Shown here: piece by piece, positions 1 through 34,311 of the stretch
How the letters are laid out: each line of letters starts with the position of its first letter
Position numbering within the stretch: position 1 is the stretch's first letter
Assembly: GCA_023133225.1 (NCBI GenBank)
Contig: JAGLWV010000274.1
Coordinates: 1 to 39,643, forward strand
DNA: 39,643 nt
Source: Candidatus Aminicenantes bacterium
Lineage (GTDB): Bacteria > Acidobacteriota > Aminicenantia > Aminicenantales > Aminicenantaceae
Direction: 5' to 3'
Translations under genes and position numbers: made by a program
Notes under the pieces: model-generated
Told to the model about the DNA's origin: nothing
The model's input: only the letters and a program-made list of their open reading frames with translations
The model's database searches: none

Positions 1-10
1 AATGGACTGC

Positions 11-1474
11 TTATCTTTTTTGGGTCTTAACCTGTTGTTTTTTTATTTCGCTCTCGAAGGGTCCTACCTTGTACTCACTAATAATGTAATATTTCGTGTT
101 TTTTTCGCGGCCAGACCACGTGGCCGCACAGCTGAATCCTCAGCCGTACTCGAAGGAGCCCCTGGCAACCACTTCACCGCCGGCTTTGGTGATCTTGTAG
201 GTCGGCTCTTTGGGGCGATGACCTAAGTCCTTCTTCTCTGATAATGGAATACGGGTTTGCGTGCCGGAGATATGGCTCAAATCGGTCAGATATTCCTTTC
301 CCTGGCCTTCGACATTAAAGTATAAAAGAACTCTCGAAGACCTTCCTCCAAGTTCCATTACCTCAATAGCTGGCAAATAGGGCTCGCCAAATTTGAGAAC
401 TGATTTTCCTCTTCCGCCCACAGTAATAAGCGGGCTTTCGGTTGTAGCCCCGGCACTTAAGCACCACATATCACCCTGTTCATCTTTCCGCAAGACTGTA
501 TATTTGAGTAAATGGTATTTTCCTTTGGGGATCTTGATCTCCTTGTCCGGCCGGTACATATTCAGACAATGCTTTCCGTCCTCTGTGAAGAGAAATATCC
601 GGTCCACCTTCATAGGCAGGTTCAAGGCGATCAAATTTTCAGTAACGGGTGTCAATGTCAATTTGCCTTCAGTAGTACTGATTTTGACTTCGAACAGTCT
701 ATCATTCACCAGCAGCAGGTCACTGCAGAACTGCTCATCGAAAGAATCGATCTTCTTGCCGCTGGTTATAAAGATATTATCGCCAGTGGCAAAGATTCGC
801 CGGCGCCTGGTAATCTGATCATCCCTCCGGAAAGTAACCCTGTCATTAAAACGGCCGCTGCAATTTCTGTCGCCAAGAACTATACGATAGCTCTGACCAT
901 TAACTTTAAACTCACCTGAGTAAGAACAATTGACTCTGAGGTAGAATCTCACGTACCGGTCGATATTCTGCTCAATGTTTCTTTTTTTACTGAGTTGATT
1001 CAACCTGGACGTATAGACATCCGGACGGAAACTGTAGGGCAGCGACTTGCCGTCAACTTCGATCGTGCTGTCTACGGAAGGAAAATCCACCCTGCAATAT
1101 TGATTCCTGTCAGTAGGCTGAAAGGTTCCATCAATGACAGGATCATCTGTTAGATCACGGTTGCCGTTGGCATCAAAATAGAGCCGGTTGTAAAAGATAT
1201 CGTTTTTTTTCTGGCGGTCCAGGACACAAAGCCTCTTCTTATCACCGATCTTAACAAATGCGTAAACTGGATACTCACTGATCAGCCTGAGCGTTTTCCA
1301 TTGGCCTGACGGAGGCTTTGTCGTTTTATCCAACCCTATAGAGCCATAAGGGTGAAAGGATTTTGATCCATCTGGATACTTAGCGTATTTCAAAGGAACT
1401 TGCACCGCAAATGCAGATACCGTAAAACAAAGTAATAAAAAAGGGACTATTGTTTTAGCGGTAAATTTACTCAT
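11..1474 (-). CDS. Exported protein of unknown function, probable selenoprotein (444 aa if TGA 140-142 is a stop; 487 aa with Sec readthrough to TAA 11-13)
   Basis: Signal peptide MSKFTAKTIVPFLLLCFTVSAFA and two D-x-N-x-[NS]-G/R Ca-binding-like motifs (FDANGNRDLTDD, GDRNCSGRFND). After ...GSFEYG-TGA the frame stays open for 42 codons (GFSCAATWSGREK...KTQKR), and a SECIS-like hairpin starts 12 nt after the TGA. Confidence 0.75.
107..142 (-). promoter_or_regulatory. UGA codon plus bacterial SECIS-like hairpin
   Basis: Minus strand reads TGA-GGATTCAGCTGT-GCGGCCA-CGTGGTC-TGGCCGC: a 7-bp GC-rich stem 12 nt after the UGA, with GGUCU at the apex as in the E. coli fdhF SECIS. Confidence 0.7.
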
Positions 1475-1556
1475 TTTTCACTCTCCCTTTCTTTCGCCTC
1501 TATTAAAAATATTGGCACATAGCTTTATTAAAAACAAGGGAAATATGTTGTGATAT

Positions 1557-1653
1557 AAAGGGGGTCAAATCTTTAATCTTGGCAAGATAAGCGAATCATC
1601 AGGTAGAGTTAAACATTAAACGGTTTATCAAGGTTAAAGATTTGACCCCCTTT
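1557..1653. repeat. REPIN/MITE-like inverted repeat, family A copy 1
   Basis: 25-bp arms AAAGGGGGTCAAATCTTTAATCTTG / CAAGGTTAAAGATTTGACCCCCTTT (1 mismatch) around a 47-bp spacer. Second copy at 34152-34244. Confidence 0.85.
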
Positions 1654-2440
1654 TTCTTTTTAATTTCTGAACTCTTTTTACTATTTTCTTCTTTATCTTT
1701 TCATAAGAGGGAGGAGGTCCTGTTCGGACCTGCTTTCCATTTATAAACAGAGCATCTGAAATTCCCCATTCTAAAAAAGTCTCTCTGTCGAACGTATCCA
1801 TTTCCTGGAAAACTACTGTATCTCCAATTTCAGAGGCAGCCCTTTTTGCTCTCTCGAATACCAAATTCATAGCCGGACACCATCCATTCAGAAAGGCTGT
1901 TGCAGTGACTTTACCCGGTATTGTTTCTGGTTTTTTCTTCTCTTTGATCCATCCTGGCGGTACCGCGTTTTCATCAAATTGCTTCCACAGGAGAACTTGC
2001 ATCCCCTGTTTATCGACTTTTTTATATCCTCTCTTCCTAAACCATGATGCTTTCATCCAGAAAGGTAAAGCCACTCCCCATGCCACCATACCTTTTGCAC
2101 CTTTTGTTTTTGCATCTTCTTCGGCAGCCTTAAGCAAAGCTTTCCCCATTCCTTTCTTCTGAAAATTTCCTCTCCCTTTTTTATGACCGTGAACCCATAT
2201 ACAGTTAATGAAATAAAGATCTTTTCCTTCCGCAGGAGAAAATTCGATAGGAATATATTGTATCATTCCCCCAATCTGACCACTGTCGTCCAGGGCAAAT
2301 TTGACTCCTAAACCTTTATCTTTCATTTTATCGAACCACAACTCTTTGTGGTTCCCTGCTTCCTTAATCTCCTCTGACCAATCCTCAAGGCACACAAAAT
2401 ACAGATTTTTGTTTTCATCCGTTAAATCGATGATTTGCAT
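1634..2440 (-). CDS. GNAT-family N-acetyltransferase (YoaP-like) with C-terminal thioredoxin-like segment
   Basis: Acetyl-CoA motif QKKGMGKALL, INCIWV strand, C-terminal GWCP...ALFING...GPPP. RBS AAGGAGG upstream. Confidence 0.85.
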   Translation of the reverse strand: MQIIDLTDENKNLYFVCLEDWSEEIKEAGNHKELWFDKMKDKGLGVKFALDDSGQIGGMIQYIPIEFSPAEGKDLYFINCIWVHGHKKGRGNFQKKGMGKALLKAAEEDAKTKGAKGMVAWGVALPFWMKASWFRKRGYKKVDKQGMQVLLWKQFDENAVPPGWIKEKKKPETIPGKVTATAFLNGWCPAMNLVFERAKRAASEIGDTVVFQEMDTFDRETFLEWGISDALFINGKQVRTGPPPSYEKIKKKIVKRVQKLKRKRGSNL

Positions 2441-2441
2441 A

Positions 2442-2546
2442 TTAAACCTCCTTAAAAATAACAGGTCTTGAAGCCATGAACACAGTATCCAGGTCCATCT
2501 TCGTAAGAATTTTGTTTGGGATTTTATCCAATGTAAGCCTTTCCAT
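2442..2546 (-). pseudogene. 34-aa ORF with its own RBS; possible N-terminal remnant of an O-methyltransferase
   Basis: GAGAGGAAAATTCAA-ATG, reading MERLTLDKIPNKILTKMDLDTVFMASRPVIFKEV*. The FMASR segment resembles the start of an O-methyltransferase dimerisation helix. Confidence 0.3.
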
Positions 2547-2777
2547 TTGAATTTTCCTCTCTATCTCGGGCCCAGGTTTCTATATGTTTTACCTCAAACC
2601 ATTAACATTTCTTAAAAAAATCCGAATCTTTTCATAATTTTATAGGTAAAAAAGGTGACAGGCAACTTATTTCATCCTTAAAACGGAAATTTGAAAGAAT
2701 TGTCGATGTATGATAATCATATTTAAGGAAATCTAGGTAAATAATGTAAATTAAGAACAAAGAGAAAGGATCAAGAT

Positions 2778-4265
2778 ATGAAAGATTCATTCAGACGACG
2801 GGATTTTCTCAAGACACTTGGGGTGGGCGCTGCGGCGTTTTCATTCTCATCATTCAGCCAGTTCTGTAAAACTCCATCCGCACGGAAAGGGCTGCCGAAC
2901 ATCGTGGTCATTTTCACCGACGACCAGGGTTATGCCGATGTTGGCTGTTATGGAGCAAGGGGATTTGAAACGCCGAATATCGACCGGATGGCAGCAGAGG
3001 GGATTCGCTTCACCAGTTTCTATGTTTCCCAGGCGGTATGCAGCGCATCGAGGGTGTCGCTTTTGACAGGATGTTATCCAAACCGTGTCAGTATATTAGG
3101 TGCGCTTGGTCCTCATGCAAAAGTTGGACTGAGCCCGGAGGAAGAAACCATCGCTGATGTCCTCAAGAAAAAGGGATACGCATGCGGTATCTTTGGGAAA
3201 TGGCATCTGGGCCACCACAGGGAATTCCTGCCCCTCCAGCATGGTTTCGACGAATACCTGGGTCTTCCCTACTCAAACGACATGTGGCCCATAGGCTATG
3301 ACGGCACGCCTGCGCCGGAAGACCACAATAAAGCCAGACATCCGTTTTTGCCCCTCATTGACGGGAATGATACGGTTGCCGTGCTGCGCACGATGAAGGA
3401 GCAGGACACTCTGACCACGCGCTATACCAGGCGTGCTGTTCAGTTTATAGAGAGGAACAAAGACAGGCCATTTTTCCTTTATGTTCCTCATACTATGGTC
3501 CATGTTCCGCTGGGAGTCTCCGATAAATTCCGCGGCAAGAGCGAGCAGGGCATGTACGGGGATGTGATGATGGAAATTGACTGGTCTGTGGGGGAAATAC
3601 TCAAGACTCTGAAAAAGAACGGCCTTGAAAACAACACACTCATTGTATATACGAGCGACAACGGCCCCTGGCTGAACTTCGGCAATCATGCAGGCTCTGC
3701 ATTGCCCTTTCGCGAGGGAAAAGGGACCTCCTGGGAGGGAGGTGTGCGTGTACCCTGTATCATGCGCTGGCCAGGGCATATTCCCGAAGGCTCGGTCTGT
3801 GACAGAATGGCTGCAACCCTGGATTTGCTGCCGACCTTTGCCGCTATTTCCGGAGCACCATTACCCAAGCATAAGATCGACGGAGTTAACATTCTGAGTC
3901 TATTAGAAGGAGATCCAGAGGCCAACCCGCGCGACCATCTGTTTTACTACTACGGTAAGCAACTTCAGTGCGTCAGGCAGGGAAAATGGAAACTTCACTT
4001 TCCTCACGGCTACCGCTCTTATCATGGCGTAGAGCCAGGAATGGATGGCCTTAACGGCCCTTATGCAAGAGGGAAAACCGGCCTGGAACTCTACGACCTG
4101 GAAAACGACATCGGTGAAAAAATTAACGTCGCCGATAAATTCCCGGAAGTTGTCAAAAAGCTTCAGGCCTTAGGAGAAAAAGCTCGCGAAGAATTGGGCG
4201 ATAGAAAACGAAAAGGAAAAGGCGTCCGTCCTTGCGGGCGTGTAAACGAACAAGCTAAACAATAA
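2778..4265 (+). CDS. Tat-exported Cys-type sulfatase (arylsulfatase A-like)
   Basis: RRRDFLK twin-arginine signal, [22 protein letters not shown] signature, [23 protein letters not shown]. Confidence 0.93.
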
Positions 4266-4286
4266 TTTCAAAGGAAAGGAGATCTT

Positions 4287-4838
4287 ATGAGGATCACAAT
4301 TCTAAACGGAAATCCGAATGCGGAAAACACCAGATTTGACAATTACCTGAAAAGCCTCTCTGATTTGCTGGAGTCAAGCAATCATACAGTGACCACCCTC
4401 AAATTAAGAGAGATGGACATAAAGTACTGTATAGGTTGTTTCAATTGCTGGGTTAAAACGCCCGGGGAATGCAGGGTGGCGGATGACTCGCGTGATGTAT
4501 GCCGTGAGTACATAAACTCCGATTTAGTGCTGTTTGTCTCACCTATCATCATGGGATTTACAAGTACATTACTCAAAAAAGCACATGAAAAACTTCTCCC
4601 TTTGCTTCTCCCCTATGTGGAGCTCGTTCAAAATGAAAGTCACCATGTTTCAAGGTATGAGAAATACCCCCGGATCGGACTTCTGCTAGAAAAGGAAAAG
4701 GATACAGATGATGAAGATCTTAAGATTATCACTGATATTTATAAACGGGATGCCATCAATTTCAAGACTTCATTTTGTTTCACAAAACTCATAACCGATT
4801 CCGCTGAGGAGGTTACAAATGAAATTAATAGTATTTAA
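4287..4838 (+). CDS. Flavodoxin family / iron-sulfur flavoprotein (NADPH-dependent FMN reductase fold)
   Basis: MRITILNGNP start, CIGCFNCW...GEC cysteine cluster, LVLFVSPI. Confidence 0.85.
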   Translation: MRITILNGNPNAENTRFDNYLKSLSDLLESSNHTVTTLKLREMDIKYCIGCFNCWVKTPGECRVADDSRDVCREYINSDLVLFVSPIIMGFTSTLLKKAHEKLLPLLLPYVELVQNESHHVSRYEKYPRIGLLLEKEKDTDDEDLKIITDIYKRDAINFKTSFCFTKLITDSAEEVTNEINSI

Positions 4839-5496
4839 TGGTTCTCCGCGAGGGAAAGAGAGCACTACGACAATTCTTCTGAAACACTTTTCAGATGGCT
4901 TCATGGCAACTGAAGAAAATACTCATGAATTAGCGTATTTGAATCATGTAAAGGATAGTGAAAAGTTCATAAAGCTCTTCCGGGAGGCAGAACAGGTTTT
5001 ATTAGCCTTTCCCCTTTATGACGATGTTATGCCGGCAATAGTGAAAACATTCATCGAGTCCCTTGAGCCGTTTTGCGGCCGGGCTGATAATCCCAGCATC
5101 GGATTCCTGGTTCAGTCTGGCTTTGCAGAAGCAAATCATTCCCGGTACGTGGAACGGTATCTGGAAAAACTCGCCCGGCGTCTCAGTTGTCAATACCTGG
5201 GGACAGTCATTAAGGGCAATGCTAATCGTATAGAGGAACAACCTGGCTGGATGACAAAAAAAATCTTCAAATCCTTCCACGAACTCGGCAGGACCTTTGG
5301 AAAAACCGGAGAATTCGATAAGCAGATCTTGCTCAAGCTGGCCAAACCTGAAAAACTCTCTGCATTTCAGTTGTGGATCTTTCGATTGATACTCAAGACA
5401 CCGCTTGCCAATCTAAACTGGAATAAATTGCTTAAGGAAAACAAAACGTTTGAAAAAAGATTCAACAAACCGTATGTGGATGAGATCATATCTTAA
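4819..5496 (+). CDS. Flavodoxin-fold NAD(P)H-dependent oxidoreductase
   Basis: MKLIVFNGSPRGKES FMN-binding loop, LAFPLYDD, QSGFAE. Overlaps the upstream gene and has a GAGGAGG RBS. Confidence 0.82.
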   Translation: MKLIVFNGSPRGKESTTTILLKHFSDGFMATEENTHELAYLNHVKDSEKFIKLFREAEQVLLAFPLYDDVMPAIVKTFIESLEPFCGRADNPSIGFLVQSGFAEANHSRYVERYLEKLARRLSCQYLGTVIKGNANRIEEQPGWMTKKIFKSFHELGRTFGKTGEFDKQILLKLAKPEKLSAFQLWIFRLILKTPLANLNWNKLLKENKTFEKRFNKPYVDEIIS

Positions 5497-5564
5497 CCTG
5501 AATTATTCATAAAATATGCCGACCCCTCGCATGTGTAGCAACCTCGACTCGTGAATAATCCAGG
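5497..5564. repeat. MITE-like palindromic mini-element, family B copy 1
   Basis: Ends CCTGAATTATTCAT / GTGAATAATCCAGG. The reverse complement matches 38103-38159. Confidence 0.75.
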
Positions 5565-5660
5565 CAAAATATATTTTTTTGCTCCGGACAATTTTGACCC
5601 TAGACTCATCACGTTTTTGAGTACCTGGTCGCATGATAGGTGATAGGTACTCTTTTTACA

Positions 5661-5891
5661 ATTCCTGCGAAGCATGTGCCTGCGCAGGCGGGTGAAAGGA
5701 TCCAATCCTCTCTCTCCGCCATTCCCGCGGAAGCGGGAATCCAGAGATATCTAAATGTGATTTCATATGTATCTATCTATACTGGATTCCCGCTTTCGCG
5801 GGAATGACATTTTTCTTATTTCTGGATTCCCGCCTACGCAGGAACAAGCCTAGATTCCCGCGAAGCCTGTGCCCGCGCAGGCGGGAATGAC
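5661..5891. repeat. Cluster of ATTCCC-N8-GGGAAT REP-like palindromes
   Basis: Perfect units at 5721-5740 and 5786-5805 in inverted arrangement, a degenerate unit near 5826, and a 32-bp direct repeat (5661-5692 vs 5854-5885, 3 mismatches). Confidence 0.85.
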
Positions 5892-5949
5892 AAATCGCTC
5901 CTATGATGAAGGAAATTACATTAGATTGAAAAAATTAATAGAAATTGCT

Positions 5950-6003
5950 AGCTCTGTTGTCAGCATAAAACTGTACGCGGCCAAGCCATAGGAAGCCATC
6001 GAG
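5950..6003. repeat. Dispersed ~55-bp repeat, family C copy 1 (possible IS-end remnant)
   Basis: AGCTCTGTTGTCAGCATA...CAAGCCATAGGAAG aligns with 32255-32310 (about 44 of 56 columns identical by hand). Confidence 0.65.
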
Positions 6004-6032
6004 CGATTTTGCTCTCTTGCTCCCGATCCTGC

Positions 6033-6503
6033 TCAATGTTTTCCGCCCTCCACCATCTTTTTGGCATGCGCCAGAATAGGAAGCATCAGATTTGTGCATA
6101 GGGTAACCGCTTTGACCGATCCGGGTAAATTGATGATCATGGTTTTCGCTTTCATGCCGCTGAAACCGCTAGATAAAACCGCAAAAGGAGTTTCCTTAAA
6201 GGATTCTCGGCGCAGGAATTCATCGATCCCGGGGAGAGATTTCTCGCAGATTTCCTGTGTGACTTCGGGTGTTATGTCTCTTGATGATATCCCGGTCCCT
6301 CCGGTCGTAAAGATAAAATCTTTGTCCAGATTATCCACGATCGCAGTATGAATGGCCTCCCGCTCGTCAGGAACCACCGTCAAGGTAACCTTGGCCGACA
6401 GATCACTCGCCAGGATGAGCTCTCTGATCTTCGGTCCGGACAAATCTTCGTATTCACCCCGGAAGGCCCTATCGGATACAGTGATCACCACTATTTCCAG
6501 CAT
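6033..6503 (-). CDS. mog: Molybdopterin adenylyltransferase MogA/MoaB family
   Basis: ITVSDRAFRGEYEDLSG, TTGGTGISSRDITPE, NLPGS. Start moved to ATG 6503, behind a GAGGAGG RBS. Confidence 0.9.
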   Translation of the reverse strand: MLEIVVITVSDRAFRGEYEDLSGPKIRELILASDLSAKVTLTVVPDEREAIHTAIVDNLDKDFIFTTGGTGISSRDITPEVTQEICEKSLPGIDEFLRRESFKETPFAVLSSGFSGMKAKTMIINLPGSVKAVTLCTNLMLPILAHAKKMVEGGKH

Positions 6504-6906
6504 GGATGACTCCTCCTCTTTTGACTCTGGCAAAAATGCCGAATTCCGGCATGATACAGTGTCCGGCTTGGTAAAAAATAGCACAGCGGGTATGACATTC
6601 TTTGCCTTTTTGTGTGATGACCAATTCGGCATCTCCGATGCGGATGTGGTCACCGATCCTGACGCTGGTCCCTTCGAGCCCACGTGTAACAATGTTTTCT
6701 CCGAAAGCTCCGTGCTCAAGATCCAACCCGGCTTCCCTCATAGTATCGATGGCCTCTCCGGCCAGAAGTGAAACCTGACGAAGGCCTTTGCCGGCATGGG
6801 CATCGTGCTCGATACCCAGATCTTCAAGCAAACGGACTGTTTTGACTGCGTGTTTTTGTATACCCTTTTTGGGGGATATACAGACAGCCTCAAGGGTGAA
6901 CGTCAT
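6469..6906 (-). CDS. MOSC domain protein
   Basis: AVCISPKKG, DAHAG, RQVSLLA, GAFGENI, GKECHTRCAI...CIMP..GIFARV. Confidence 0.92.
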   Translation of the reverse strand: MTFTLEAVCISPKKGIQKHAVKTVRLLEDLGIEHDAHAGKGLRQVSLLAGEAIDTMREAGLDLEHGAFGENIVTRGLEGTSVRIGDHIRIGDAELVITQKGKECHTRCAIFYQAGHCIMPEFGIFARVKRGGVIHAGNSGDHCIR

Positions 6907-7345
6907 GTTTGATCTTCTCCGTCAATGAAATCTCTCCAATCTGCATCGTCTTATCCACGGCTTTACACATGTCATAGATAGTAAGGGCTGCGATTGCTAC
7001 GGCCGTGAGAGCTTCCATTTCCACGCCAGTCCTTCCCTGACAGACCACACGGCTGCTGATCTCGATCCCGTCGGATCGAACCGACATCTGAACATCGACA
7101 TAGTCGATCCCAAGAGTATGACACAGAGGGATGAGCTCGGTTGTCTTTTTGGCCCCCTGGATTCCTGCTACGCGTGCAACAGCTAAAACATCTCCTTTCT
7201 GGAGTTGATTTTTTTTGACCAGATCGATGGTCGCGGACTGAAGAAATACCTTACCTGCCGCTACAGCTTCCCTACGGACAATGCTTTTGCTGCTGACATC
7301 CACCATTCGGGCGTCCCCTGTTGAGGTGACATGTGTGAGTTTCAT
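6890..7345 (-). CDS. moaC: Cyclic pyranopterin monophosphate synthase MoaC
   Basis: LTH...ARMVDVSSK, KGDVL, LIPLCH, TGVEMEAL, TIYDMCKAVD. Confidence 0.97.
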   Translation of the reverse strand: MKLTHVTSTGDARMVDVSSKSIVRREAVAAGKVFLQSATIDLVKKNQLQKGDVLAVARVAGIQGAKKTTELIPLCHTLGIDYVDVQMSVRSDGIEISSRVVCQGRTGVEMEALTAVAIAALTIYDMCKAVDKTMQIGEISLTEKIKHDVHP

Positions 7346-7346
7346 A

Positions 7347-8153
7347 TTACCCTCCGATCTCCCAGTTTCCCCTGACAGTACATCTCATCCCGTGTTCAGG
7401 TTTATTGATAATGGCTTCTTGCAGGCTGGACGTGATATCCTTCAGGTCGACGGGATATTCCCGATCCGAAAAAAGGCACGGCTTCAGTTTTCCATCTGCA
7501 GTCAGCCGAATGCGGTTGCACTGTTCGCAGGGAAGAGGCCTTTCCGCTTCATAGTTCTGCTGTGTAGTAAGAAGTTCATTCAGAAAATAATGATTGATCC
7601 TCTGGAACAGGAGCCCTTTTTCCCGGCAGAATTCTTCCATTTTCTCTACACATCCCAGGTTGATATCAGGGATAAGCACCATATTCAGTTTAGTGTTTTT
7701 AAAGCCTGCTTTCAAGGTCGCTTCGATTCCTTCCAGAACCTTGTCCAAATCACTGCTTCCGGTCAAGGTGCGGTACTTTTCGGGATCCAGAGTATCCAGG
7801 GAGATGTTTATCCTATCCAGTCCCGCCTGCCTGAGGTCCACGGCCATTTTCGAAAGAAGAACGCCGTTAGTAGTAAGTGCGACTTCCTTTACACCCTTAA
7901 TATTTTTGAGATAGAGTATCAAATGGTCGATATTTTTCCGCACCAATGGTTCACCGCCGGTCAGGCGGATCTTTGATATCCCTAACCTCGCAGCTTCCTC
8001 CACAATCCGGACGATCTCTTCATAGGAAAGAATCCCATCGCGGGGATGCAGAGGTACTCCCCTGGGTGGCATACAATATATACACCTCAGATTGCAGCGG
8101 TCTGTAACCGAAATCCGAAGATAGGAGATACGTCTATTGTATCGATCGAACAT
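7347..8153 (-). CDS. moaA: GTP 3',8-cyclase MoaA (radical SAM), compact 268-aa form
   Basis: YLRISVTDRCNLRCIYC, RLTGGEP, CEQCNRIRLTADGKLKPCL, C-terminal IGG. Confidence 0.93.
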   Translation of the reverse strand: MFDRYNRRISYLRISVTDRCNLRCIYCMPPRGVPLHPRDGILSYEEIVRIVEEAARLGISKIRLTGGEPLVRKNIDHLILYLKNIKGVKEVALTTNGVLLSKMAVDLRQAGLDRINISLDTLDPEKYRTLTGSSDLDKVLEGIEATLKAGFKNTKLNMVLIPDINLGCVEKMEEFCREKGLLFQRINHYFLNELLTTQQNYEAERPLPCEQCNRIRLTADGKLKPCLFSDREYPVDLKDITSSLQEAIINKPEHGMRCTVRGNWEIGG

Positions 8154-9306
8154 CGACTAAACTTCCTTTCGCGATTTTATTTTCCCCCTCCGGCACACAG
8201 AGCAATCCATTGGCTCTGGTCAAGGCATGAAAATGTGCTGAACCGTGATAGGGCAGGATCTCGACAAGTGCTTTTTGGTGCCGGACCGGTATATAAGCGG
8301 AACGGGAAGACTGTTTTCTTCGGAAATCTGTCGCCATTTTCCCCTGGATGATCTCGGGATAATAATCATGTCCCATCATCCTGTATAGAAATGGTTTTAC
8401 AAACACCTCAAAGATGACAAAAGTGGAGACAGGATTACCGGGAACACCAAACACTACGGCATCTCCTCTGGTAGCGAACACCGTGGGCTTTCCCGGTTTT
8501 ATGGCGAGTTTCTCAAAATGAAGTTTGAAACCAATTTTTTTCAAAATACCAGGGACATAATCGAAATCTCCTGCAGAAACCCCACCCGAAAGAATCACCA
8601 GATCACAGGATGCCAACAGGCCATCTAAGGCGGACCGGATTCCGTCCTGGCTGTCTAAAACGATGCCTGCAGATTCAGCGATGCCCCCCATAGATTCGAC
8701 CTGGCTCCTCAGTGAATAGGAATTGCTGTCATAGATCCGCCCTGGTTCGAGGGGTTTCCCCGGAGCAACCAGCTCTGAACCTGTGACCAGAATGCCGACG
8801 ATAGGCCTTTTGTATACCAAAACACGCGATAAACCCATGGATGCGACCACCCCGATCTCAGAAGGACCTATCCAAGTGCCTTTTCTCAAGAGCACATCAC
8901 CTGTCCGCACGTCTTCGCCTCGAAAACAGATATTCATAGTGGGGTCTTCTCCCACGATTCGCATGTAACCCTCTTCCTCGATCGTCACTTCGCGTTTGAC
9001 GACCCGGTTTGCCCCCTCAGGCACCACTCCCCCGGTCATGATCTTTGCACACTGGCCTGCACCTATTTTTTGTAAAGGGATGACTCCTGCGGGAATGACT
9101 TCCAGGATGCGAAAGCGATCGCTCTTATCGTCGGCATTTAGTGCATATCCATCCATGGCGGATTTGTTAAAAGGGGGCATATCGATTTCAGAACGTATGT
9201 CCTGGCCGAGAATTCGGTTCAGGGTCCCATGGATGGATTCAGCCTCAAGAGCCGGTCTCACCGGAATAGAAGCTAATATCTTCTCTGCTTTTTTAATCGA
9301 GATCAT
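8134..9306 (-). CDS. moeA: Molybdopterin molybdo/tungstotransferase MoeA
   Basis: PPFNKSAMDGYA, IMTG, TGSEL, SGGVSAGDFD, KPGKP, PGNPVS. Confidence 0.96.
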   Translation of the reverse strand: MISIKKAEKILASIPVRPALEAESIHGTLNRILGQDIRSEIDMPPFNKSAMDGYALNADDKSDRFRILEVIPAGVIPLQKIGAGQCAKIMTGGVVPEGANRVVKREVTIEEEGYMRIVGEDPTMNICFRGEDVRTGDVLLRKGTWIGPSEIGVVASMGLSRVLVYKRPIVGILVTGSELVAPGKPLEPGRIYDSNSYSLRSQVESMGGIAESAGIVLDSQDGIRSALDGLLASCDLVILSGGVSAGDFDYVPGILKKIGFKLHFEKLAIKPGKPTVFATRGDAVVFGVPGNPVSTFVIFEVFVKPFLYRMMGHDYYPEIIQGKMATDFRRKQSSRSAYIPVRHQKALVEILPYHGSAHFHALTRANGLLCVPEGENKIAKGSLVDVRSIQ

Positions 9307-9317
9307 TTTTCCTCACC

Positions 9318-10328
9318 TTAATGTTCAAAGACTTTAAGCGCTGCGGTCTTAAACGTAGCCCAAAGACGCCGTCCGGGTTTAACAGCCAGTTCCTGACGGG
9401 ATTGAGAAGTGATATCTACATGGAGAAGTATACCGATATCAAACACCACTTCGATGTGGTTCTCCCGCTGGATCACCCTGAGGACCTCTCCCGGGAAAGA
9501 ATTGCGGGCGGATGACAGGATCTTTTCTTTCGATAGGATAATGCCATTTGCACGGATGGCGATATACGCCAGATCAGACCGCGGCACCATAGTCATGATT
9601 TCAACCCCATGAATGTTCATGCGGTAATCCTTGATCTTCCCGGATAATACATTTTTATAGCCTAAGAAATCGGCAGCGGTCTTTGTGACCGGATTGTTGA
9701 AGACTTTCTCGGGAGTATCGATCTGGACCATCTTTCCGTCAAAAAGAAGGGCGACCCTGTCACCCAGAACCAAAGCCTCCTCAAAATCATGGGTGACATG
9801 AATGACCGTGGGCCGAAGTTCCTTGTGCAGACGCATAAACAGCCTCTGTATCTTGATTCTTGTGCTGAGGTCCAAGGCGGCCGTCGGTTCGTCAAAAAGG
9901 TAGATCTCCGGTTCCAAGACCATGGTCCGGGCAATGGCGACCCTCTGTCTTTCCCCCCCAGAGAGACGATCGATCCTACGGTGAAGCAGGTGCGATATAT
10001 CCAACTCCTGGGCAGTGGAACGGACAATATTATTTATCTCATCTTTTCCGGTTTTTATTATACGCAACCCGTAGCCGATATTCCGGAATACGTTCATGTG
10101 GGGAAAGAGCATATAATCCTGGTAAATCAGGCCGATACGCGAATGATAGACACCACGGATCGACCCGGAATCAGGCTTGATCAATCCGGCAATCATTTCC
10201 AGAAGAAGAGTCTTGCCAGAGCCGCTCGGTCCCAGCACGACAAAATACTCGCCTTTATCGACTTCCAGGTTGATATGATCGATCTTAAAATCCTGGTATT
10301 CTTTACAGAGGTTTTCTATTTTGATCAT
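9318..10328 (-). CDS. wtpC: Tungstate/molybdate ABC transporter ATPase with TOBE domain
   Basis: GPSGSGKT, LSGGERQR, FDEP, C-terminal SSARN TOBE motif. Adjacent to wtpAB. Confidence 0.85.
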   Translation of the reverse strand: MIKIENLCKEYQDFKIDHINLEVDKGEYFVVLGPSGSGKTLLLEMIAGLIKPDSGSIRGVYHSRIGLIYQDYMLFPHMNVFRNIGYGLRIIKTGKDEINNIVRSTAQELDISHLLHRRIDRLSGGERQRVAIARTMVLEPEIYLFDEPTAALDLSTRIKIQRLFMRLHKELRPTVIHVTHDFEEALVLGDRVALLFDGKMVQIDTPEKVFNNPVTKTAADFLGYKNVLSGKIKDYRMNIHGVEIMTMVPRSDLAYIAIRANGIILSKEKILSSARNSFPGEVLRVIQRENHIEVVFDIGILLHVDITSQSRQELAVKPGRRLWATFKTAALKVFEH

Positions 10329-11077
10329 AGCCTGTCCTCCCGAAAACGAAGGACAATGAATATCACCAGGCTGATGATGATCAACAGGACGGTGACAGGG
10401 ACGGCATGCTTGAGCCCATAATTCTGAAAACGCTCAAAGATCAATACAGGGGCGGTCATGGGGTGATAAGCCAATATGACCACAGCTCCGAACTCCGAGA
10501 TACCCCGCGCCCACATCATGATCCCACCTGAAATGATGGCCTTCCTTGCCATAGGTAAGCTTACTGTCGTAAAGGCTTTCCACGTTGTCGCTCCGAGTGT
10601 GATGGCGGTTTTTTCATAACGAACGTCTATGAGCTTAAAAGCTTCCTTGGCGCTGTTGATGAGAAATGGCACCGAGACAAAAAACATCCCCAATGAAACA
10701 GATGCCTCGGTCCCTATGATGGACAGACCGGTCCATCTGGTGAAAAGCGACTCCCGGCCCCAGACCATAAGCAGGGCAATGCCGGCAGCTGTGTGTGGAA
10801 TGATGACCGGGATGTCGATCAGACCTTCGACAATCTTTTTTCCGAAGAAACGGGAACGTGCCAGCACAAAAGCCAGGGGAACACCCAGACCGAAGGCTAC
10901 GATCGTCGCCCAGAGCGAAGCCCTTAGAGTCAGGATGATGGATCCAATCACCTCTGGTTCAACTGCCGCCCGTACCAGCTCCCCGGGAGTAGTGGCGATA
11001 ATCATCCTGAACAAAGGCACAACGATAGACAGAACCAGAAGTGTTCCCAAAAAGGAAAAGATGAGTTTAACTTTCAC
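10325..11077 (-). CDS. wtpB: Tungstate/molybdate ABC transporter permease
   Basis: DIPVIIPHTAAGIALL, WARGISEFGAVVILAYHP. Start placed at GTG 11077, overlapping the wtpA stop. Confidence 0.88.
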   Translation of the reverse strand: MKVKLIFSFLGTLLVLSIVVPLFRMIIATTPGELVRAAVEPEVIGSIILTLRASLWATIVAFGLGVPLAFVLARSRFFGKKIVEGLIDIPVIIPHTAAGIALLMVWGRESLFTRWTGLSIIGTEASVSLGMFFVSVPFLINSAKEAFKLIDVRYEKTAITLGATTWKAFTTVSLPMARKAIISGGIMMWARGISEFGAVVILAYHPMTAPVLIFERFQNYGLKHAVPVTVLLIIISLVIFIVLRFREDRL

Positions 11078-12026
11078 TCTTCGTATCCCGTACAAACGGC
11101 CGCACGATAAGCGGCAGCGCCTCAAAATTATCCACACGGGCGGGCACAATCTCAGGCTGACCGCTTGTCTCCATGATCCGACGCCCTTCCGGCCCGAGCA
11201 CAAAAACGACGAACCGGGCCGCCCATTCCGGCGACGCTGCTGATTTCGGGATGGTGATACCGTACACTATAGGAGCTCCTTTTCGGATGATCCTTTCTTC
11301 AGGATGGGCTCCGCTTAACTCCACACCGACCTGGCTGTAATATTCAGACAGTTCAACAGATCTTAAATTCATTTCATCGGGGAGGATCAGGAAAGGTCCG
11401 CCATGTTGTTCCGCCACGCTGCGGTATATAAAGATGTAGTCCAGCTCTCCCGCCTCCAGAAGGGCCAGCAGATCGACTTCTTTGGGTCGTATGTTTTTCA
11501 GAGGTCGTGAAACGATCAAGGTCTTATAAAGCCCGGGGATGCTGTAATATTTTTCCGCGAGCTGCCAGCAGAGCAGAGTCCGGTAACCGCAGGGATCGGC
11601 ACTGGGATTGGAATGACCGTATTCCACTTGAGGATCAAGAAGAATATCGGGTCAGTTTTGGACTGAGATCGTATCGGCATACCGGCTTTTTGGAGTGTAC
11701 ATGATGACCATCTCGTTAGTGGCGAAATCGATACAAAAATCAGCATACCGGGGCATGAGCAGATGTCGTATCACTGCCGAATCCGCCGAGGCAAAAACAT
11801 CCGCAGGAGAATTCAACTCGGTGATTTTTCTGGCACAGGTCCGGCTTCCGGCGGATTCGAGACGGACAGAGACTTCCGGATATTTTTCCATAAAAGCGCC
11901 CGCCATGTGTTTGAATGGGACCGAGAGCGAACCGGCATGCAGTATGAGCAGCTCTTCCTTCCCGGACCTGCAGCTACAATTAAAAATAAGAAGTGCCAGC
12001 AGAAGCATTAACAGAAATCTGTTCAT
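11067..12026 (-). pseudogene. wtpA: Tungstate/molybdate-binding lipoprotein WtpA interrupted by an in-frame TGA at 11652-11654
   Basis: HAGSL, SAGSRTCARKI, ADVFASAD, NPSADPCGYR, GELDYIFIYRSVA, YGITIP. The track ORFs 11652..12035 and 11067..11627 are in one frame, separated only by that TGA. Confidence 0.85.
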
Positions 12027-12083
12027 ATACGTCACCTGCTCTCGAATGGAAAGGGGAATCTTGGACAGAATGTCCGCAGTGTC

Positions 12084-12178
12084 TTCTCCTTTCCAAACAC
12101 GGGAGGCAAAACCGTTTTCAGTCTTACCCTATCGGCTTAAAGACATAGACACAGCCTTAGTCCTTTAAGCTCGGAGAA
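12084..12178 (-). ncRNA. Moco RNA motif riboswitch, P3-less (tungsten-cofactor-associated) variant
   Basis: TTCTCC-GA-GCTTAAAG..CTAAG..CTATG..CTTTAAGC-CGAT-AGGGT-AAGACTGAAAACGGTTTT-GCCT-CCCGTGTTTGGAAA-GGAGAA, directly upstream of the wtpA/moa operon. Confidence 0.92.
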
Positions 12179-12421
12179 ATTAAAATCTTATCCTAAAAGA
12201 CAGGTCAGGTCAACTCTATCCCTAAAGGAAAGCCTGAAACCAAGCAAGTTTTCCTCGCTTGTGAAAACGCAAGAGAACTTCAAGACCTAGAGCAAAATTT
12301 ATATTCATTTGTGATACCAGAGTTGTATAAGAATGACAGATGAGTTGTCCTTTTTTGGATACATCTGTGCATAGCCGATGACAGATAATTGAGTGAGATG
12401 AATTGCTTTATCTGAAATGAT

Positions 12422-12438
12422 TTGGTATATAAATTGCA
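12422..12438 (+). promoter_or_regulatory. Candidate sigma54 (-24/-12) promoter
   Basis: TTGGTATATAAATTGCA with GG-N10-GC spacing, about 135 bp upstream of the 12574 gene. Confidence 0.5.
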
Positions 12439-12573
12439 TATAAGAAAGAATGGAGGAATACAAATAAAAGGGGAAAGTGCCAATTTTTTCTTGCTTGAAT
12501 ACGTCTATTCTCAGGCAGAAGAAAAAAAGCAAAAACACATTGTGGTCAGGGATTCATAGAGTGGGGTAAAACC

Positions 12574-13485
12574 ATGGAGAGGGGAAATAAAAAAACTATA
12601 TCATCCTTACCGATGTTTTTTCCTTTGTCATGTCTCATAATATTTTTGGCATTTGCCTTGATTTTCTTCTCTCCGTCGATTTTTGCTCAGAATGTGTCAG
12701 TGCAAACTGACCAGGCAAAGATGGCACAAATTTTGAAACAATCAAAAGAATATTGCCGGAGATTAGCCCATGCAGCCCTGGATTTTGTATGTATGGAGGA
12801 AGTTTCAGAGAAAAAGATTAACATCATTCAGGTTCTCGAAATGATCAGGTTTGGGATGGGAAGCCGGGTCGTGGAAAAGGAGTTTGTACGTAAACATAAA
12901 TATCTCTATGATTATCAGTTTATCCATAAAGACGATCGGAAAATCGAAAAAAGAATACTGCTGGAAGAGGATGGCATAAAGAAAAGAGAAGAAGTCACAC
13001 GGCTGAAGACCACAATGTTTCAATATAAAAATGTTATATTCGGCCCGATCAATCTTCTCGATGAAGACAGACAGCCGTTCTATAATTATAAAATGATTGG
13101 AGACGAGCTCATTGATGGAAAAAAAACTCTAGTCATTGAAGCTACTCCCATTCCAACATTTCGCGAGCAGATCCTTTGGGGAAAAATCTGGGTATGCGAA
13201 AGTGACTTCAGTATCCTTAAGATCGAATGGAATCAGGACAGAATGGCACATTCTGCGATCATCAAAGACATGGCCAGAAGATACAAGGCGGAACCCCGGA
13301 TCACACACTTAACAGAATTTGGCTTTGAGAAGAATGGGATAAGATTTCCCAGCCGTTATTTTATTGAGGAAGTCTATATCAAAAAAAAAGGGAAAAAAAT
13401 CGTTCATTCAGAAACACAAGTTATCTACAAAGATTATAAATTTTTTACCGTTGAAACTGATGTTAAATTTAAATTGAAAAAATGA
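12574..13485 (+). CDS. Exported hypothetical protein (beta-rich, distantly LolA/MucB-like by pattern)
   Basis: 303-aa ORF with a hydrophobic N-terminal signal/TM segment; DFVCMEEV, GKIWV...ILKIEW, RFPS, YKDYKFF. Confidence 0.75.
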   Translation: MERGNKKTISSLPMFFPLSCLIIFLAFALIFFSPSIFAQNVSVQTDQAKMAQILKQSKEYCRRLAHAALDFVCMEEVSEKKINIIQVLEMIRFGMGSRVVEKEFVRKHKYLYDYQFIHKDDRKIEKRILLEEDGIKKREEVTRLKTTMFQYKNVIFGPINLLDEDRQPFYNYKMIGDELIDGKKTLVIEATPIPTFREQILWGKIWVCESDFSILKIEWNQDRMAHSAIIKDMARRYKAEPRITHLTEFGFEKNGIRFPSRYFIEEVYIKKKGKKIVHSETQVIYKDYKFFTVETDVKFKLKK

Positions 13486-13571
13486 ATAAGCAGATAAAAC
13501 ATTCGATAATTTTAGAGACGGCCTGGAACAAACAAACCGAAAATATAACACTAAAGGAAGAGGAATAGTCT

Positions 13572-15653
13572 ATGCGTAAATATGCCGCTTTACTATGCTG
13601 TATGTTTTTTGGGGGAATGTTCCTGATAGCCCAGGAACTCAAGCATGAGGTCGCGGTCGTACTGAAGCTTATCCAGGTCTATGTTACCGATAGCGCCGGA
13701 AACCCGATCACAGACCTCAAACCGGATGAATTTATAGTCTATGACAATAGAAAGCTCCAGAATATAACGGAGTTCGAAAGACATCTTCTTTTTCCTCCTG
13801 AAGCTGAAGCCGTGTCTCCCCCCGAAAAAAAAGACCTTGCACGGGCAGGTGCACCGGATGATGTTATGAACCGGAAGTTCTTCCTCTTCTTCGATCTTGT
13901 CAATAATAACGCGAAAGGCTTTCAAAAAGCCCAGGAAGCGGCCCTGCACTTTCTCGATAACCAGGTGCAGCCTTCGGACGAAGTCGGTGTTCTTTCCTAC
14001 TCGGTTTTAAAGCAACTGACACTCCATGAATATTTAACGAAAGACCGCCGGGCGGTTCGCAGCGTCGTGAGACAGATTGGGGGAACGGGAAGAATTGGCC
14101 GGGCAGAAAATTTTGAAGCACTGCTTTACCAAGAGATGACGGGTGAGCAACCTTGGGATGCCAGCCAGCAGGGCCAATCCGTGAAGGATGGAGCCCCCGC
14201 TCGCTTGAGAAATTTGGGATTACTGCCGGATTCACTTTTGGCGGAGGGCGCTATGTCCGGCGCCCGTTTCAACAGAGAGCAGTATAAAAATCTAATCCAC
14301 AATATGTTTGAAAGACTGACCGGCCTTTCCAAGGCACTCCGCTACATTTCTGGGAACAAGCATATCATTTTATTTTCCTCCGGCGTTCCTTACTCGATGA
14401 TTCACGGGTTGGAAACGGGCAGTCCGACCACATTCACAAGTCTGGGAATGGATGCTATTCTAAGAAGTAAATACCAGGAAATGATCAAGGAGCTGAGCAA
14501 TTCGAACACGACCGTGTTTAGTCTGAACACCGAAAGTTTGGCCACAAACATGAATCTCCCCTCCCATCAGAAGGGAGAGGCCACACTCAGGAGTATTTCC
14601 AAATATACGGGAGGCAAATTCGTCGGTAACGTGCAAAATTATGATCAAGTCCTGGACACAATTCAAACATTTACAGGTTCCTATTATGTTCTCGGCTTCC
14701 AAATAGATGAATCCTGGGACGGCAGGTACCACTCTATAGAGGTCAAGGTCACACGCCCCAACTGTAAAGTTTTCGCCCAGAAAGGATATTTTAATCCCAA
14801 GCCATTCTCCAAGTACTCTGCGATGGAAAAGGAACTCCACCTTATTGACCTTGCGCTTTCGGATAGGTCTCTTCTCCAGAATCCGGTCGATATCCCGATG
14901 ACTGTCCTTCCCTGTTCTGTTGGAAATGAACAAGGCATCTGTTTGCTGGCACAGATCAATATGGGAAAGATAAAAGAATCCATCGGGGAAAAGGCGGAGA
15001 TCTACTTTATAGTGTTCGATGAAAAAGAGGACATTAAAGAAATGAAGCGGAAGGCGGTGAAGCTATCAGCCTTAAAGGGAAAGGAAGCCTATTATTATTC
15101 CATTATGCGCCTCTCTCCCGGGTCATACAAGTGCCGCATTGTCATGCGGGATATGGATAAAGGGAGCGGTGCGGTCGGGCGTTATTCGGTGGAAATTCCG
15201 GAGATCCCTGAGAAAGGCCTTATGCTTTTCCCCCCTCTTCTGCTGGCCCCTGGAAAGGCAGGCCTCTTTGTAAGAGGGTATGTCCCGGAGACAATGAGCA
15301 CTGATTTTCCTTTGCTGGATTGTTTCCCCTTTGACCCGGCCAAGTATTCTCCTATCCTGGGAGCAATTCCTGGAGATATGCCCAGCATCCTGGCCGTGCT
15401 CCATTGTTCCGTTAGAAACCTCACAAATCCGCGTGTGCGGTTTACAGCCCACATGGTTGAAAAATCCTCAGGAGAGTCGATCCCCCTGACGGTGTCTATT
15501 CTCTCCGGTAAAAAAGAAGGCGAAATGGGGACGATCCTTGCCAAATTGAAATTGCCGGACATTAAACCTGGTGAGTACGTCCTCGTAATATCTGCAAATG
15601 ACACCTCGAGTCAGGCCCGTTCTCAAACGTTTACCCCCTGCAAAATCCGCTGA
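13572..15653 (+). CDS. Exported VWA-domain protein (Acidobacterial VWFA-related type)
   Basis: Signal peptide, VTDSAGNPITDLKPDEFIVYD, KHIILFSSG, TGG, YYVLGF, DGRYHSIEVKV...AQKGY, followed by beta-sandwich domains. Confidence 0.88.
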   Translation: MRKYAALLCCMFFGGMFLIAQELKHEVAVVLKLIQVYVTDSAGNPITDLKPDEFIVYDNRKLQNITEFERHLLFPPEAEAVSPPEKKDLARAGAPDDVMNRKFFLFFDLVNNNAKGFQKAQEAALHFLDNQVQPSDEVGVLSYSVLKQLTLHEYLTKDRRAVRSVVRQIGGTGRIGRAENFEALLYQEMTGEQPWDASQQGQSVKDGAPARLRNLGLLPDSLLAEGAMSGARFNREQYKNLIHNMFERLTGLSKALRYISGNKHIILFSSGVPYSMIHGLETGSPTTFTSLGMDAILRSKYQEMIKELSNSNTTVFSLNTESLATNMNLPSHQKGEATLRSISKYTGGKFVGNVQNYDQVLDTIQTFTGSYYVLGFQIDESWDGRYHSIEVKVTRPNCKVFAQKGYFNPKPFSKYSAMEKELHLIDLALSDRSLLQNPVDIPMTVLPCSVGNEQGICLLAQINMGKIKESIGEKAEIYFIVFDEKEDIKEMKRKAVKLSALKGKEAYYYSIMRLSPGSYKCRIVMRDMDKGSGAVGRYSVEIPEIPEKGLMLFPPLLLAPGKAGLFVRGYVPETMSTDFPLLDCFPFDPAKYSPILGAIPGDMPSILAVLHCSVRNLTNPRVRFTAHMVEKSSGESIPLTVSILSGKKEGEMGTILAKLKLPDIKPGEYVLVISANDTSSQARSQTFTPCKIR

Positions 15654-21729: not shown

Positions 21730-21758
21730 TTGATAATTGCCACTGCGTGCAGTATATT
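21730..21758 (+). promoter_or_regulatory. Sigma70-type promoter; probable leaderless start at GTG 21765
   Basis: TTGATA-N17-TATATT, then 6 nt, then GTG; no SD in between. Confidence 0.5.
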
Positions 21759-21764
21759 ATTATT

Positions 21765-23828: not shown

Positions 23829-24724
23829 AAAAAACGTTTTTTATCCTTTTTCCTGTCTGTTTCTTCCTCCTTGTTTCTTGTGCTTCTTACAGGCTGGAAA
23901 AAAAACTATCCCCTGTAAATAAGGAATTCCTTTCCAAAGTGAGATACATCATCACCAGACAAGAGCGAAAAATCTTCCTCAATCTCCTTCCTTCAGACAG
24001 GAAGAGTTTCATTGAAGAATTCTGGGAAAAAAGAGACCCTGATCCTGATACAGAAATAAATGAGTTTAGGGAAGAATATTTCGAGCTTATTGAAGAAGCC
24101 AATCTTCTCTTTAAAGAGGGAAGCACTCCGGGTTGGCTCCAGGAGAGAGGAAGGGTGTACATCACCCTTGGCCCCCCTGACAACAGAGAAACGTATCCAA
24201 GAGGCATGTCTTTGTATGGAAAACCCATGGAGATATGGTATTACGGTTTTTTCCCGGTAGTCTTTATTGATGACAACTGGACCGGCAGCTATAAACTGGA
24301 GCCTCTCAGTGCCCAGCACATTAGTGCGATCAATAAAACCCAGGTCGATTCAAGACCGGAAGTCTCCAAGCAAAAAGTTGTCTTTGACTTCCATCTTAAT
24401 ATAAAAAAAGTGAAAGAAGGTGAAGCTCTTTTTCAAGTTGAAATTCCTTATAAAAATATCTGGTTTGCAGTAAAAGAGAATCTATTACAAACAATTTTAG
24501 AAGTCTCCGTGGAAGTATTGGATCAGGCTGAAAAAAAAGTATGGCAGCACCAGGAAAATTATGTAATCTCATTAACCGAAAAAAATCTCGAAGAACTCAT
24601 CGGCAAGAATTATTTGATCGAGGTTTCGGCAAATATCAATCCTGGAAATTACATTCTTGCCGTAGAGATCGGAAACAATACGGGTGGAGAGCGGGTGAGG
24701 AAAAGAGCCAAATTCACCGTCTGA
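23825..24724 (+). CDS. GWxTD domain lipoprotein (GWLQE variant)
   Basis: ATGA overlap with the upstream gene; lipobox LVSC; YIITRQE..FIEEFWEKRDPDP..GWLQERGRVYITLGPP..EIWYY. Confidence 0.9.
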   Translation: MKKTFFILFPVCFFLLVSCASYRLEKKLSPVNKEFLSKVRYIITRQERKIFLNLLPSDRKSFIEEFWEKRDPDPDTEINEFREEYFELIEEANLLFKEGSTPGWLQERGRVYITLGPPDNRETYPRGMSLYGKPMEIWYYGFFPVVFIDDNWTGSYKLEPLSAQHISAINKTQVDSRPEVSKQKVVFDFHLNIKKVKEGEALFQVEIPYKNIWFAVKENLLQTILEVSVEVLDQAEKKVWQHQENYVISLTEKNLEELIGKNYLIEVSANINPGNYILAVEIGNNTGGERVRKRAKFTV

Positions 24725-34128: not shown

Positions 34129-34151
34129 ACATTTAACCGTCACGATAAAAG

Positions 34152-34244
34152 AGGGGTCAAATCTTTAATCTTGAGAAAATTATCAAAGAAAAAGGATCAA
34201 ACTAAAGATTTTATAATTTACTCAAGATTAAAGATTTGACCCCT
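34152..34244. repeat. REPIN/MITE-like inverted repeat, family A copy 2
   Basis: Perfect 24-bp arms AGGGGTCAAATCTTTAATCTTGAG / CTCAAGATTAAAGATTTGACCCCT with a 45-bp spacer. Confidence 0.88.
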
Positions 34245-34311
34245 TTTTTGCTCAAGAAAAATAGGACCGTCCCCTTTTTTGTCACGAATTATAAATTTTC
34301 CGATTTTTCCC

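Follow-up and report, generated by a model that had tools for sequence, protein, structure and literature searches.

Evidence for a widespread, apparently uncatalogued family of probably exported selenoproteins, traced from a TGA-interrupted gene of a Candidatus Aminicenantes bacterium

A 2026 catalogue lists 119 prokaryotic selenoprotein families and subfamilies (PMC13188914). The exported thioredoxin-fold selenoproteins in its tables (thiol:disulfide interchange, DsbA/DsbG-like and UGC TlpA-family proteins) are extracytoplasmic, pair selenocysteine (Sec) with a Cys close by, and are presumed to work in thiol/selenol redox chemistry. The same traits are proposed here for the product of a TGA-interrupted gene at positions 11-1474, minus strand, of a 39,643-nucleotide stretch of DNA (the window) from a Candidatus Aminicenantes bacterium (assembly GCA_023133225.1, contig JAGLWV010000274.1). 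This gene very probably encodes a 487-residue exported protein of a large family, in which UGA codon 445 is read as Sec by means of a hairpin of the bacterial selenocysteine insertion sequence (bSECIS) type. That the family is real, widespread and apparently uncatalogued is strongly supported. Its Cys forms include fusions to Redoxin/AhpC-TSA domains, a further likeness to the thioredoxin-fold group, from which it differs in having its Sec in the predicted loop of an immunoglobulin (Ig)/FN3-like sandwich and in a UxxxC rather than a UxxC motif. The recoding mechanism is the ordinary bacterial one; the novelty is the family and its fold context.

Other catalogued families resemble the present one in single features. 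TsoA (LULAXC, NF045695) has the same U-x-x-x-C spacing and the UGSC-containing protein (NF041046) the same U-G motif start, both as given in the catalogue's table rows only. The DUF1573 selenoprotein (PF07610, UGC) also starts its motif with U-G and, in the catalogue's table, is not described as thioredoxin-like (PMC13188914). Neither the TsoA nor the UGSC model matches the window protein (hmmscan, NCBIfam release 20.0), and the DUF1573 protein differs in having UGC in place of UG[F/G]xC, the present protein being much larger, multidomain and without a Pfam match. We take DUF1573 to be Ig-like. The window protein matches no Pfam-A family and no NCBIfam family at E up to 1, and the selenoprotein models for UGSC, TsoA, DUF1573 and hypothetical protein DG (NF049953) are among those without a match. 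The "hypothetical proteins DG, DW, DF" described with deep-Sep belong to Desulfobacterota, according to the sections of that paper covered here (PMC12013277), and BSepDB, as its paper describes it in the part covered, compiles known families only (PMC13326102). An earlier note on this DNA recognized no selenoprotein family in the gene, and Table 1 of the catalogue likewise contains no obvious match, that is, no multidomain all-beta exported protein with G-U-G-x-x-C (PMC13188914). The portions of the literature covered (PMC13188914, PMC12013277, PMC4807772, PMC13326102) make no mention of a family so described; their supplements (S9 of PMC4807772, Table S2 of PMC12013277, Table S2 of PMC13326102) and Haft and Tolstoy 2025 lie outside that coverage and could list it.

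The open reading frame (ORF), the in-frame TGA, the 42-codon continuation and the TAA at 11-13 that the earlier note described are all correct, coordinates included. With TGA read as U, the frame continues G-F-S-C-A-A-T-W-S-G-R and so on for 42 codons to the TAA, giving a product of 487 residues, and the UxxxC spacing that had been claimed is that of U445-x-x-x-C449. The expectation that gene callers would truncate the protein agrees with the databases. A protein search returned 172 relatives at E up to 0.001; among the 120 of these that were listed, with identities reaching down to 37%, 119 end at [Y/F][G/A/S] just before the UGA column (117 at exactly YG), the lone exception being a fragment. 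Such conservation, climbing toward a universal "C-terminus", reads as the signature of a miscalled selenoprotein.

At the DNA level, a scan of species-representative genomes provided 80 loci (L022-L101). Loci are designated L, proteins P and contigs C; G000 is the window's own genome and G001-G005 are other genomes. Of these, 55 have a match that extends to residue 444, and in 54 of them TGA comes next, with the frame open for at least 39 codons more and the peptide conserved; the 55th, L027, is explained by a misplaced match end. A six-frame profile search of the 80 loci reveals 96 matches to the C-terminal domain, of which 94 have TGA at the Sec column and two have gaps. Homologs are thus interrupted where the earlier note had proposed to look, at the same (F/M)EYG-TGA, in all 94 domain matches aligned at that column. 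TAA or TAG at this place, which the note would have taken as evidence against Sec, was looked for and is present in none of the 96, nor is a Cys codon. The close relatives L112, L113 and L114 keep the TGA as well.

The tail past the UGA is conserved, which was another point the earlier note had left to be checked. Its consensus is G-U-G-[F/G]-x-C-x-x-W ... GP. Alignment A4, with 55 rows of the last domain, shows G and U in every row and G87, C90, W94 and P113 in at least 90% of rows, so that G, C, W and P are near-invariant within the tail; among the alignment rows read, only L037 is without the Cys that corresponds to Cys449. This conservation persists down to 20-25% identity, and TGA, tail and hairpin recur together in 54 other loci. 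Nucleotide identity across the tail is 124/129 to L112 and 122/129 to L113, and over the 200 codons upstream it is 543/600 and 537/600. Because relatives at 81-83% identity retain the TGA, the tail and the stop, with tail DNA 95-96% identical against about 90% for the upstream coding sequence (CDS), selection for read-through has operated until recently. Contigs from two other studies carry the tail with 2 changes in 129 nt. UGA is not globally reassigned, since 20 of 54 family tails are themselves closed by TGA about 40 or more codons past the UGA and, in the window genome, TGA closes 417 of 1333 frames that are open for at least 300 codons between stops. Pfam-supported genes near the window gene also terminate at TGA.

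Members of the family occur in records whose titles name Aminicenantes, Hydrogenedentes, Sumerlaeota/BRC1, Nitrospir-, Planctomycetota, Verrucomicrobiota, Kiritimatiellia, Omnitrophota and Armatimonadota. Many of the loci contain paralogs in tandem, for example four in L026 and five in L040. The tail itself varies in a few members. In L071 (4237-4614) and L078 (about 4255-4629; title naming Armatimonadota) it runs into an extra domain of about 140 residues; that of L071 gives a weak DUF1559 match (E 0.001, 19.6 bits against a cut-off of 23.3) and that of L078 gives none. In L028 and L034, both with titles naming Sumerlaeota/BRC1, an insert of about 27 residues follows directly after the conserved Trp, just 3' of the hairpin, and the remainder of the tail beyond it is conserved.

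The hairpin lies within this conserved coding region. With the U of UGA as nucleotide 1, its 7-bp stem in the window, GCGGCCA/UGGCCGC, takes up nucleotides 16-22 and 30-36 and begins, as had been noted earlier, 12 nt past the codon. The apex had been given as GGUCU: the GG is indeed in the loop, and the loop as a whole is CGUGGUC, of which GGUCU takes in the 3' part together with the first base of the stem. The hairpin alone has a predicted energy of -13.9 kcal/mol; for its 91-nt context the energy is -30.3 kcal/mol (z = -2.79), a value equalled or bettered by 2 of 200 shuffles. A consensus bSECIS has a loop of 3-9 nt, a stem of 4-16 bp, G in the first two loop positions, a spacing of 16-37 nt and an energy of -7.5 kcal/mol or below, as summarized in the catalogue (PMC13188914). 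By manual reading the window hairpin agrees with this consensus: 7-bp stem, 7-nt loop with G second, spacing 19 nt and the energy given above. Like the bSECIS of Escherichia coli fdhF, it is a coding stem-loop just 3' of the UGA with a small apical loop containing G-G or G-U. Across the family the distance from UGA to loop is mostly 18-21 nt (16 in three alternative folds), within the consensus range of 16-37, and the energy is -7.5 kcal/mol or lower in 48 of 55.

The 45 nt from the UGA onward align without gaps in the 55 sequences. The family hairpin starts 14-15 nt past the UGA, with helix columns 18-23 pairing with 29-34 and an extension to 16-36 in some members. Paired cells amount to 79.4%, against 59.4% in shuffles, and the covariation score is 0.481, against 0.128 in shuffles; neither value is reached in any of 500 shuffles, and the score falls to 0.04-0.14 when the partners are slid by 1-3 columns. 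Three pairs show 3-4 standard pair types each: 19-33 (GC 19, UA 19, CG 12), 20-32 (AU 26, CG 18, UA 4) and 22-30 (UA 28, AU 20). The encoded amino acids switch together, A-T-W-x-G against Y-S-W-R-V, with the pairing preserved. The UGG codon of the conserved Trp is always inside the loop, and the GG of the loop is therefore fixed.

An AlphaFold2 model of all 487 residues, built from a 44-row alignment, has a mean predicted local distance difference test (pLDDT) value of 93.1 and a pTM of 0.89. After an N-terminal helix (residues 6-21, pLDDT 58-68) it is all-beta. Residues 366-487 form a single unit that aligns only to Ig/FN3-like domains, with generic Z values of 6.4-7.7. U445 and C449 are placed in a loop between two strands of this C-terminal sandwich, and the three strands listed in Table 1 lie past Sec, in a tail with pLDDT mostly 83-97. 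Because those strands follow Sec, a 444-residue product would lack three strands of its last domain. The earlier note had seen no obvious thioredoxin fold, and the model has none; a thioredoxin-like fold around UxxC or CxxU is not found in a protein that is all-beta with a UxxxC motif. Searched whole with Foldseek against the Protein Data Bank (PDB), the model yields only weak multi-Ig rows (TM 0.09-0.17). The N-terminal 336 residues, modelled alone, have a pLDDT of 91.3, no Foldseek match at E up to 0.001 and a best VIA Z of 5.6, which does not imply a novel fold. They carry a nearly invariant D-x-N-x-N-G-D-L-T-D-D-P stretch that looks like a calcium-binding loop. Export is probable, as judged from the N-terminal sequence pattern, the model helix and the similar N-termini of homologs.

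A profile of the last domain matches 1082 representative proteins at E up to 1e-3. Among the best 150 of these, 118 end at [Y/F][G/A/S] before the Sec column and 2 more end at WG in the same place. The remaining 30 run past it and contain 33 domain matches, in which the column is occupied by C (8), G (6), R (5), S (4) and other residues. Cys-containing homologs, whose existence the earlier note had left to be checked, thus account for 8 of 33 domain matches. Two are full-length (P0161, 483 residues; P0224, 468 residues), and in P0127, P0156 and P0187 the C-terminal domain is fused to a Redoxin/AhpC-TSA domain. A single base change in TGA gives a codon for W, G, R or S, and forms with these residues may be rescue mutations or translations under another code.

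Genomes that carry the TGA form generally have the means to decode it. SelA is above cut-off in 49 of 52 other carrier genomes (4 of 4 plus 45 of 48), against 12 of the 31 genomes sampled from the window's own order. In all of the four nearest carriers (G001-G004) selD and the tRNA for Sec (tRNA-Sec) are present and clustered with selA. A complete carrier genome without Sec machinery would have spoken against the interpretation in the earlier note; the complete chromosome that holds L024 (G001) has selA, selD and tRNA-Sec. In L022, L035, L042, L065 and L072 SelB is encoded beside the family gene. The order in L022 and L035 is SelB, Fer4_5, family gene; in L042 SelB is nearby; in L065 and L072 both SelB and SelA are next to the gene, on the opposite strand. 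For the family as a whole, the selenoprotein interpretation is supported by the TGA column, the tail, the Cys forms and the SelA record of the carriers.

Several observations weigh against this interpretation, either in general or for the window's organism. By automatic minimum free energy (MFE) reading, all four bSECIS constraints are satisfied in only 18 of 55 hairpins; 27 of 55 miss only the rule of G in the first two loop positions, their loop being AUGGN with GG at positions 3-4, and 10 of 55 fail on energy or stem parsing. For the window hairpin the automatic parse splits the loop at a 1-bp C-G closure, and the stem/loop rule is scored as failed. Part of the covariation could reflect protein constraint because the stem lies in coding sequence; the test of register with slid partners indicates that this is not the whole story. 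The eight Cys forms (P0127, P0137, P0144, P0154, P0156, P0161, P0187, P0224) are known at protein level only, and the redox role, the partners and export are all inferred.

The other opposing observations concern the window genome, a metagenome-assembled genome (MAG) of 406 contigs that is 79.65% complete. The earlier note had proposed a search for selA, selB, selC and selD, and none is above cut-off in this MAG. SelA has no match; the best selD match has 68 bits against a cut-off of 125; SelB yields only EF-Tu-like matches and a 390-residue SelB-wing paralog; the best tRNA-Sec scores 40.5 bits against 47, and ARAGORN reports none among only 25 tRNAs. Sec-type FdhA (TIGR01553) gives nothing above cut-off, with weak matches at contig ends. 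A crude scan of the genome for other TGA-interrupted genes, by coding potential and hairpin, returned 31 candidates, and no redox motif was seen in the 18 inspected; the scan is insensitive, because the window gene itself falls just below its arbitrary threshold. The window gene is an accessory gene here: it is the only copy among 31 genomes of the order, being absent from 30 relatives, and the only copy among 301 genomes of the phylum, being absent from 300 others. The GNAT and sulfatase genes next to it have counterparts of 95-96% identity (92% further along) in G005, a genome of the same genus, which beyond GNAT has a different gene at the syntenic site.

The 390-residue ORF lies at G000:C213:5360-6529 (L009 1483-2655, minus strand), adjoining RNase R. 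It matches SelB 311-575 only, without the GTPase domain, and is a free-standing paralog of the C-terminal part of SelB. As a sign of Sec use it was rejected, being present in 31 of 31 genomes of the order regardless of SelA.

These observations could mean that the selenoprotein family is real and the window's organism cannot decode UGA, the gene being a recent or orphan accessory that yields a 444-residue product or nothing useful. Such a state is unlikely. It would explain why selA, selB, selD and tRNA-Sec are all unfound in the MAG and why the gene is missing from the G005 site and from the rest of the phylum sample; G005 also lacks selA and selD, SelA occurs in only 4 of 18 same-family genomes, and synteny breaks both at a dispersed repeat and, against L112, about 75 nt upstream of the start codon. 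The MAG is incomplete and fragmented, however, and in same-family genomes that have the trait selB, selD and selA are neighbours on the same contig, about 10 kb apart at most, as sel genes are also clustered in G001-G004, so that a single missing contig would explain the blank. The tail, stop and hairpin are intact and better conserved than the upstream CDS relative to the 81-83% relatives, truncation would cost the last domain its three strands, and nearly all other carriers have SelA. The Sec machinery of this organism probably lies in the unassembled fifth of its genome. Weighing the prior of 49/52 against a chance of about 0.1-0.25 that a clustered sel locus was missed makes it likely, rather than certain, that this organism decodes the UGA as Sec.

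The synteny break with G005 coincides with a palindromic dispersed repeat of about 100 nt with 17-bp arms, GGGGGTCAAATCTTTAA, found in the window at 1554-1655 and 34147-34249. G005 and at least 20 further contigs of the window's genome have diverged copies. It behaves like a mobile element of the miniature inverted-repeat (MITE) or repetitive extragenic palindromic (REP) type, because some populations have no copy beside the gene. A 4232-nt contig from another sample is identical over window 1291-3000, and contigs of two further studies bridge 1523-1699, one of them a variant without the repeat. Chimeric assembly at the repeat was rejected, as these contigs cross the junction, and so was mis-binning, since in GC content and tetranucleotide profile (rank 36 of 131) the contig is typical of its bin. 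The sequencing runs in which the stretch occurs are labelled as cold-seep and marine-sediment metagenomes; no RNA dataset is among those listed.

Read-through of UGA without Sec, for example by a near-cognate Trp, Cys or Arg tRNA and stimulated by the hairpin, is very improbable. In its favour, the conservation of the tail and the part it plays in the fold make clear that it is translated, and some distant full-length homologs do have W, G, R or S, one base from TGA, at the column. It leaves aside the presence of SelA in 49 of 52 carriers, the selB or selA genes beside five loci, a hairpin position and GG-bearing loop as in bacterial SECIS elements, the predominance of Cys (8 of 33) in homologs that run past the column, the invariant Gly that flanks the column and the conserved Cys that follows it. 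That TGA is a true stop, with a terminator, a regulatory hairpin or a separate small gene behind the downstream conservation, is effectively refuted: every gene caller ends the protein there, and a short way 3' of it come a GC-rich hairpin and then an A-rich run, but the run is A-rich rather than U-rich on the mRNA strand, the frame stays open for at least 39 codons without indels in 54 loci of many phyla, the tail is conserved at the amino-acid level with no intervening start codon and completes a confidently modelled beta-sandwich, and no homolog has TAA or TAG at the column.

For the Sec-containing protein the following mode of action is proposed. The hairpin, with the GG of the conserved Trp codon in its loop, would direct recoding. 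Sec445 and Cys449, in the loop of the Ig-like sandwich, would work outside the cytoplasm as a redox pair of selenol and thiol (selenenylsulfide). A NapH/NosR-like membrane polyferredoxin (Fer4_5), encoded directly upstream, might feed this pair in many carriers, and in the Cys forms the fused Redoxin domain might be the partner. When neighbour genes are clustered over the 80 loci, 14 loci have a Fer4_5 (PF12801) gene directly upstream and in the same orientation as the family gene; a 260-residue protein of unknown type is a neighbour in 9, a BcrAD/BadFG-type ATPase in 8 and an HGD-D protein in 6. From the Cys forms, the Redoxin fusions and the Fer4_5 neighbours, we infer that the protein takes part in selenol/thiol redox chemistry outside the cytoplasm, with electrons from a donor in the membrane. 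An alternative is that the Sec/Cys site binds a metal or metalloid. A broader proposal is tentative: in an uncatalogued, phylum-spanning family without a thioredoxin fold, the G-U-G-x-x-C loop on the Ig-like domain might serve as the catalytic end of a new extracytoplasmic system of electron-transfer or reductase type, one that is fed by the NapH/NosR-like polyferredoxin and that, in anoxic-sediment bacteria of the PVC group and of candidate phyla, has expanded to as many as five tandem copies at a locus.

Table 1. Positions in the window of the TGA-interrupted gene and its parts
Feature	Position	Strand	Remarks
Full read-through CDS	11..1474	-	444 codons, UGA (Sec445), 42 codons, TAA 11-13; 487 residues
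ORF as called	140..1474	-	444 residues, C-terminus ...GSFEYG, then TGA 140-142
UGA codon for U445	140..142	-	Same-column TGA in 94/96 domain matches of L022-L101; also in L112, L113, L114
Cys449 codon, partner in U-x-x-x-C	128..130	-	Column at least 90% conserved in alignments A3 and A4
SECIS-like hairpin	107..127	-	7-bp stem; loop CGUGGUC with UGG codon of near-invariant Trp453
42-codon tail 3' of UGA	14..139	-	Predicted beta-strands 449-453, 461-467, 479-483 of C-terminal Ig-like domain
Probable Sec-type signal peptide, residues 1-23	1406..1474	-	Lys-rich start, hydrophobic core, A-F-A before V24
Possible leader/promoter, about 75 nt, travelling with the gene	1475..1549	-	One mismatch to L112; further upstream unrelated

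The stretch upstream of the start codon may be a promoter or regulatory leader: it differs by 1 base from that of the metagenome contig L112, though the CDS is only about 90% identical. Searched with Rfam at E up to 1, window 1-1800 gives only sub-threshold, chance hairpin matches, none of them in this leader.

Elsewhere in the window, the intergenic stretch 5490-5890, which separates the MoCF gene from the second FMN-reductase-like gene, consists of short elements; dozens of sites spread over many G005 contigs match them at 88-100% identity, and they look like another dispersed short-repeat family. Contig C180 of G005 matches window 2670-4265 and then 12274-14186, the two parts being about 1.4 kb apart with only short repeat-like matches between; G005 thus appears to be without the block of FMN-reductase-like, Moco biosynthesis and molybdate transporter genes (window 4287-12274). 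Genes for three GWxTD-domain paralogs (TIGR04514) are at 16596-18740, 21747-23828 and 23708-24724, with a sulfatase-TPR fusion near them at 25774-28023; TPR repeats occur in two of the three paralogs.

The family copies seen in databases are truncated hypothetical proteins, 120 of the best 150 of 1082 ending at the Sec column, so that selenoprotein counts for Planctomycetota, Verrucomicrobiota, Aminicenantes and several candidate phyla are too low. A SECIS with UGG in its loop and clear covariation is a useful test case for selenoprotein finders; under automatic reading, about half of the family hairpins break one rule of the consensus model. Sec on an extracellular Ig-like scaffold without a thioredoxin fold would be unusual, and the NapH-like polyferredoxin, the selB and selA neighbours and the Redoxin fusions are testable leads to what may be a new periplasmic redox activity.

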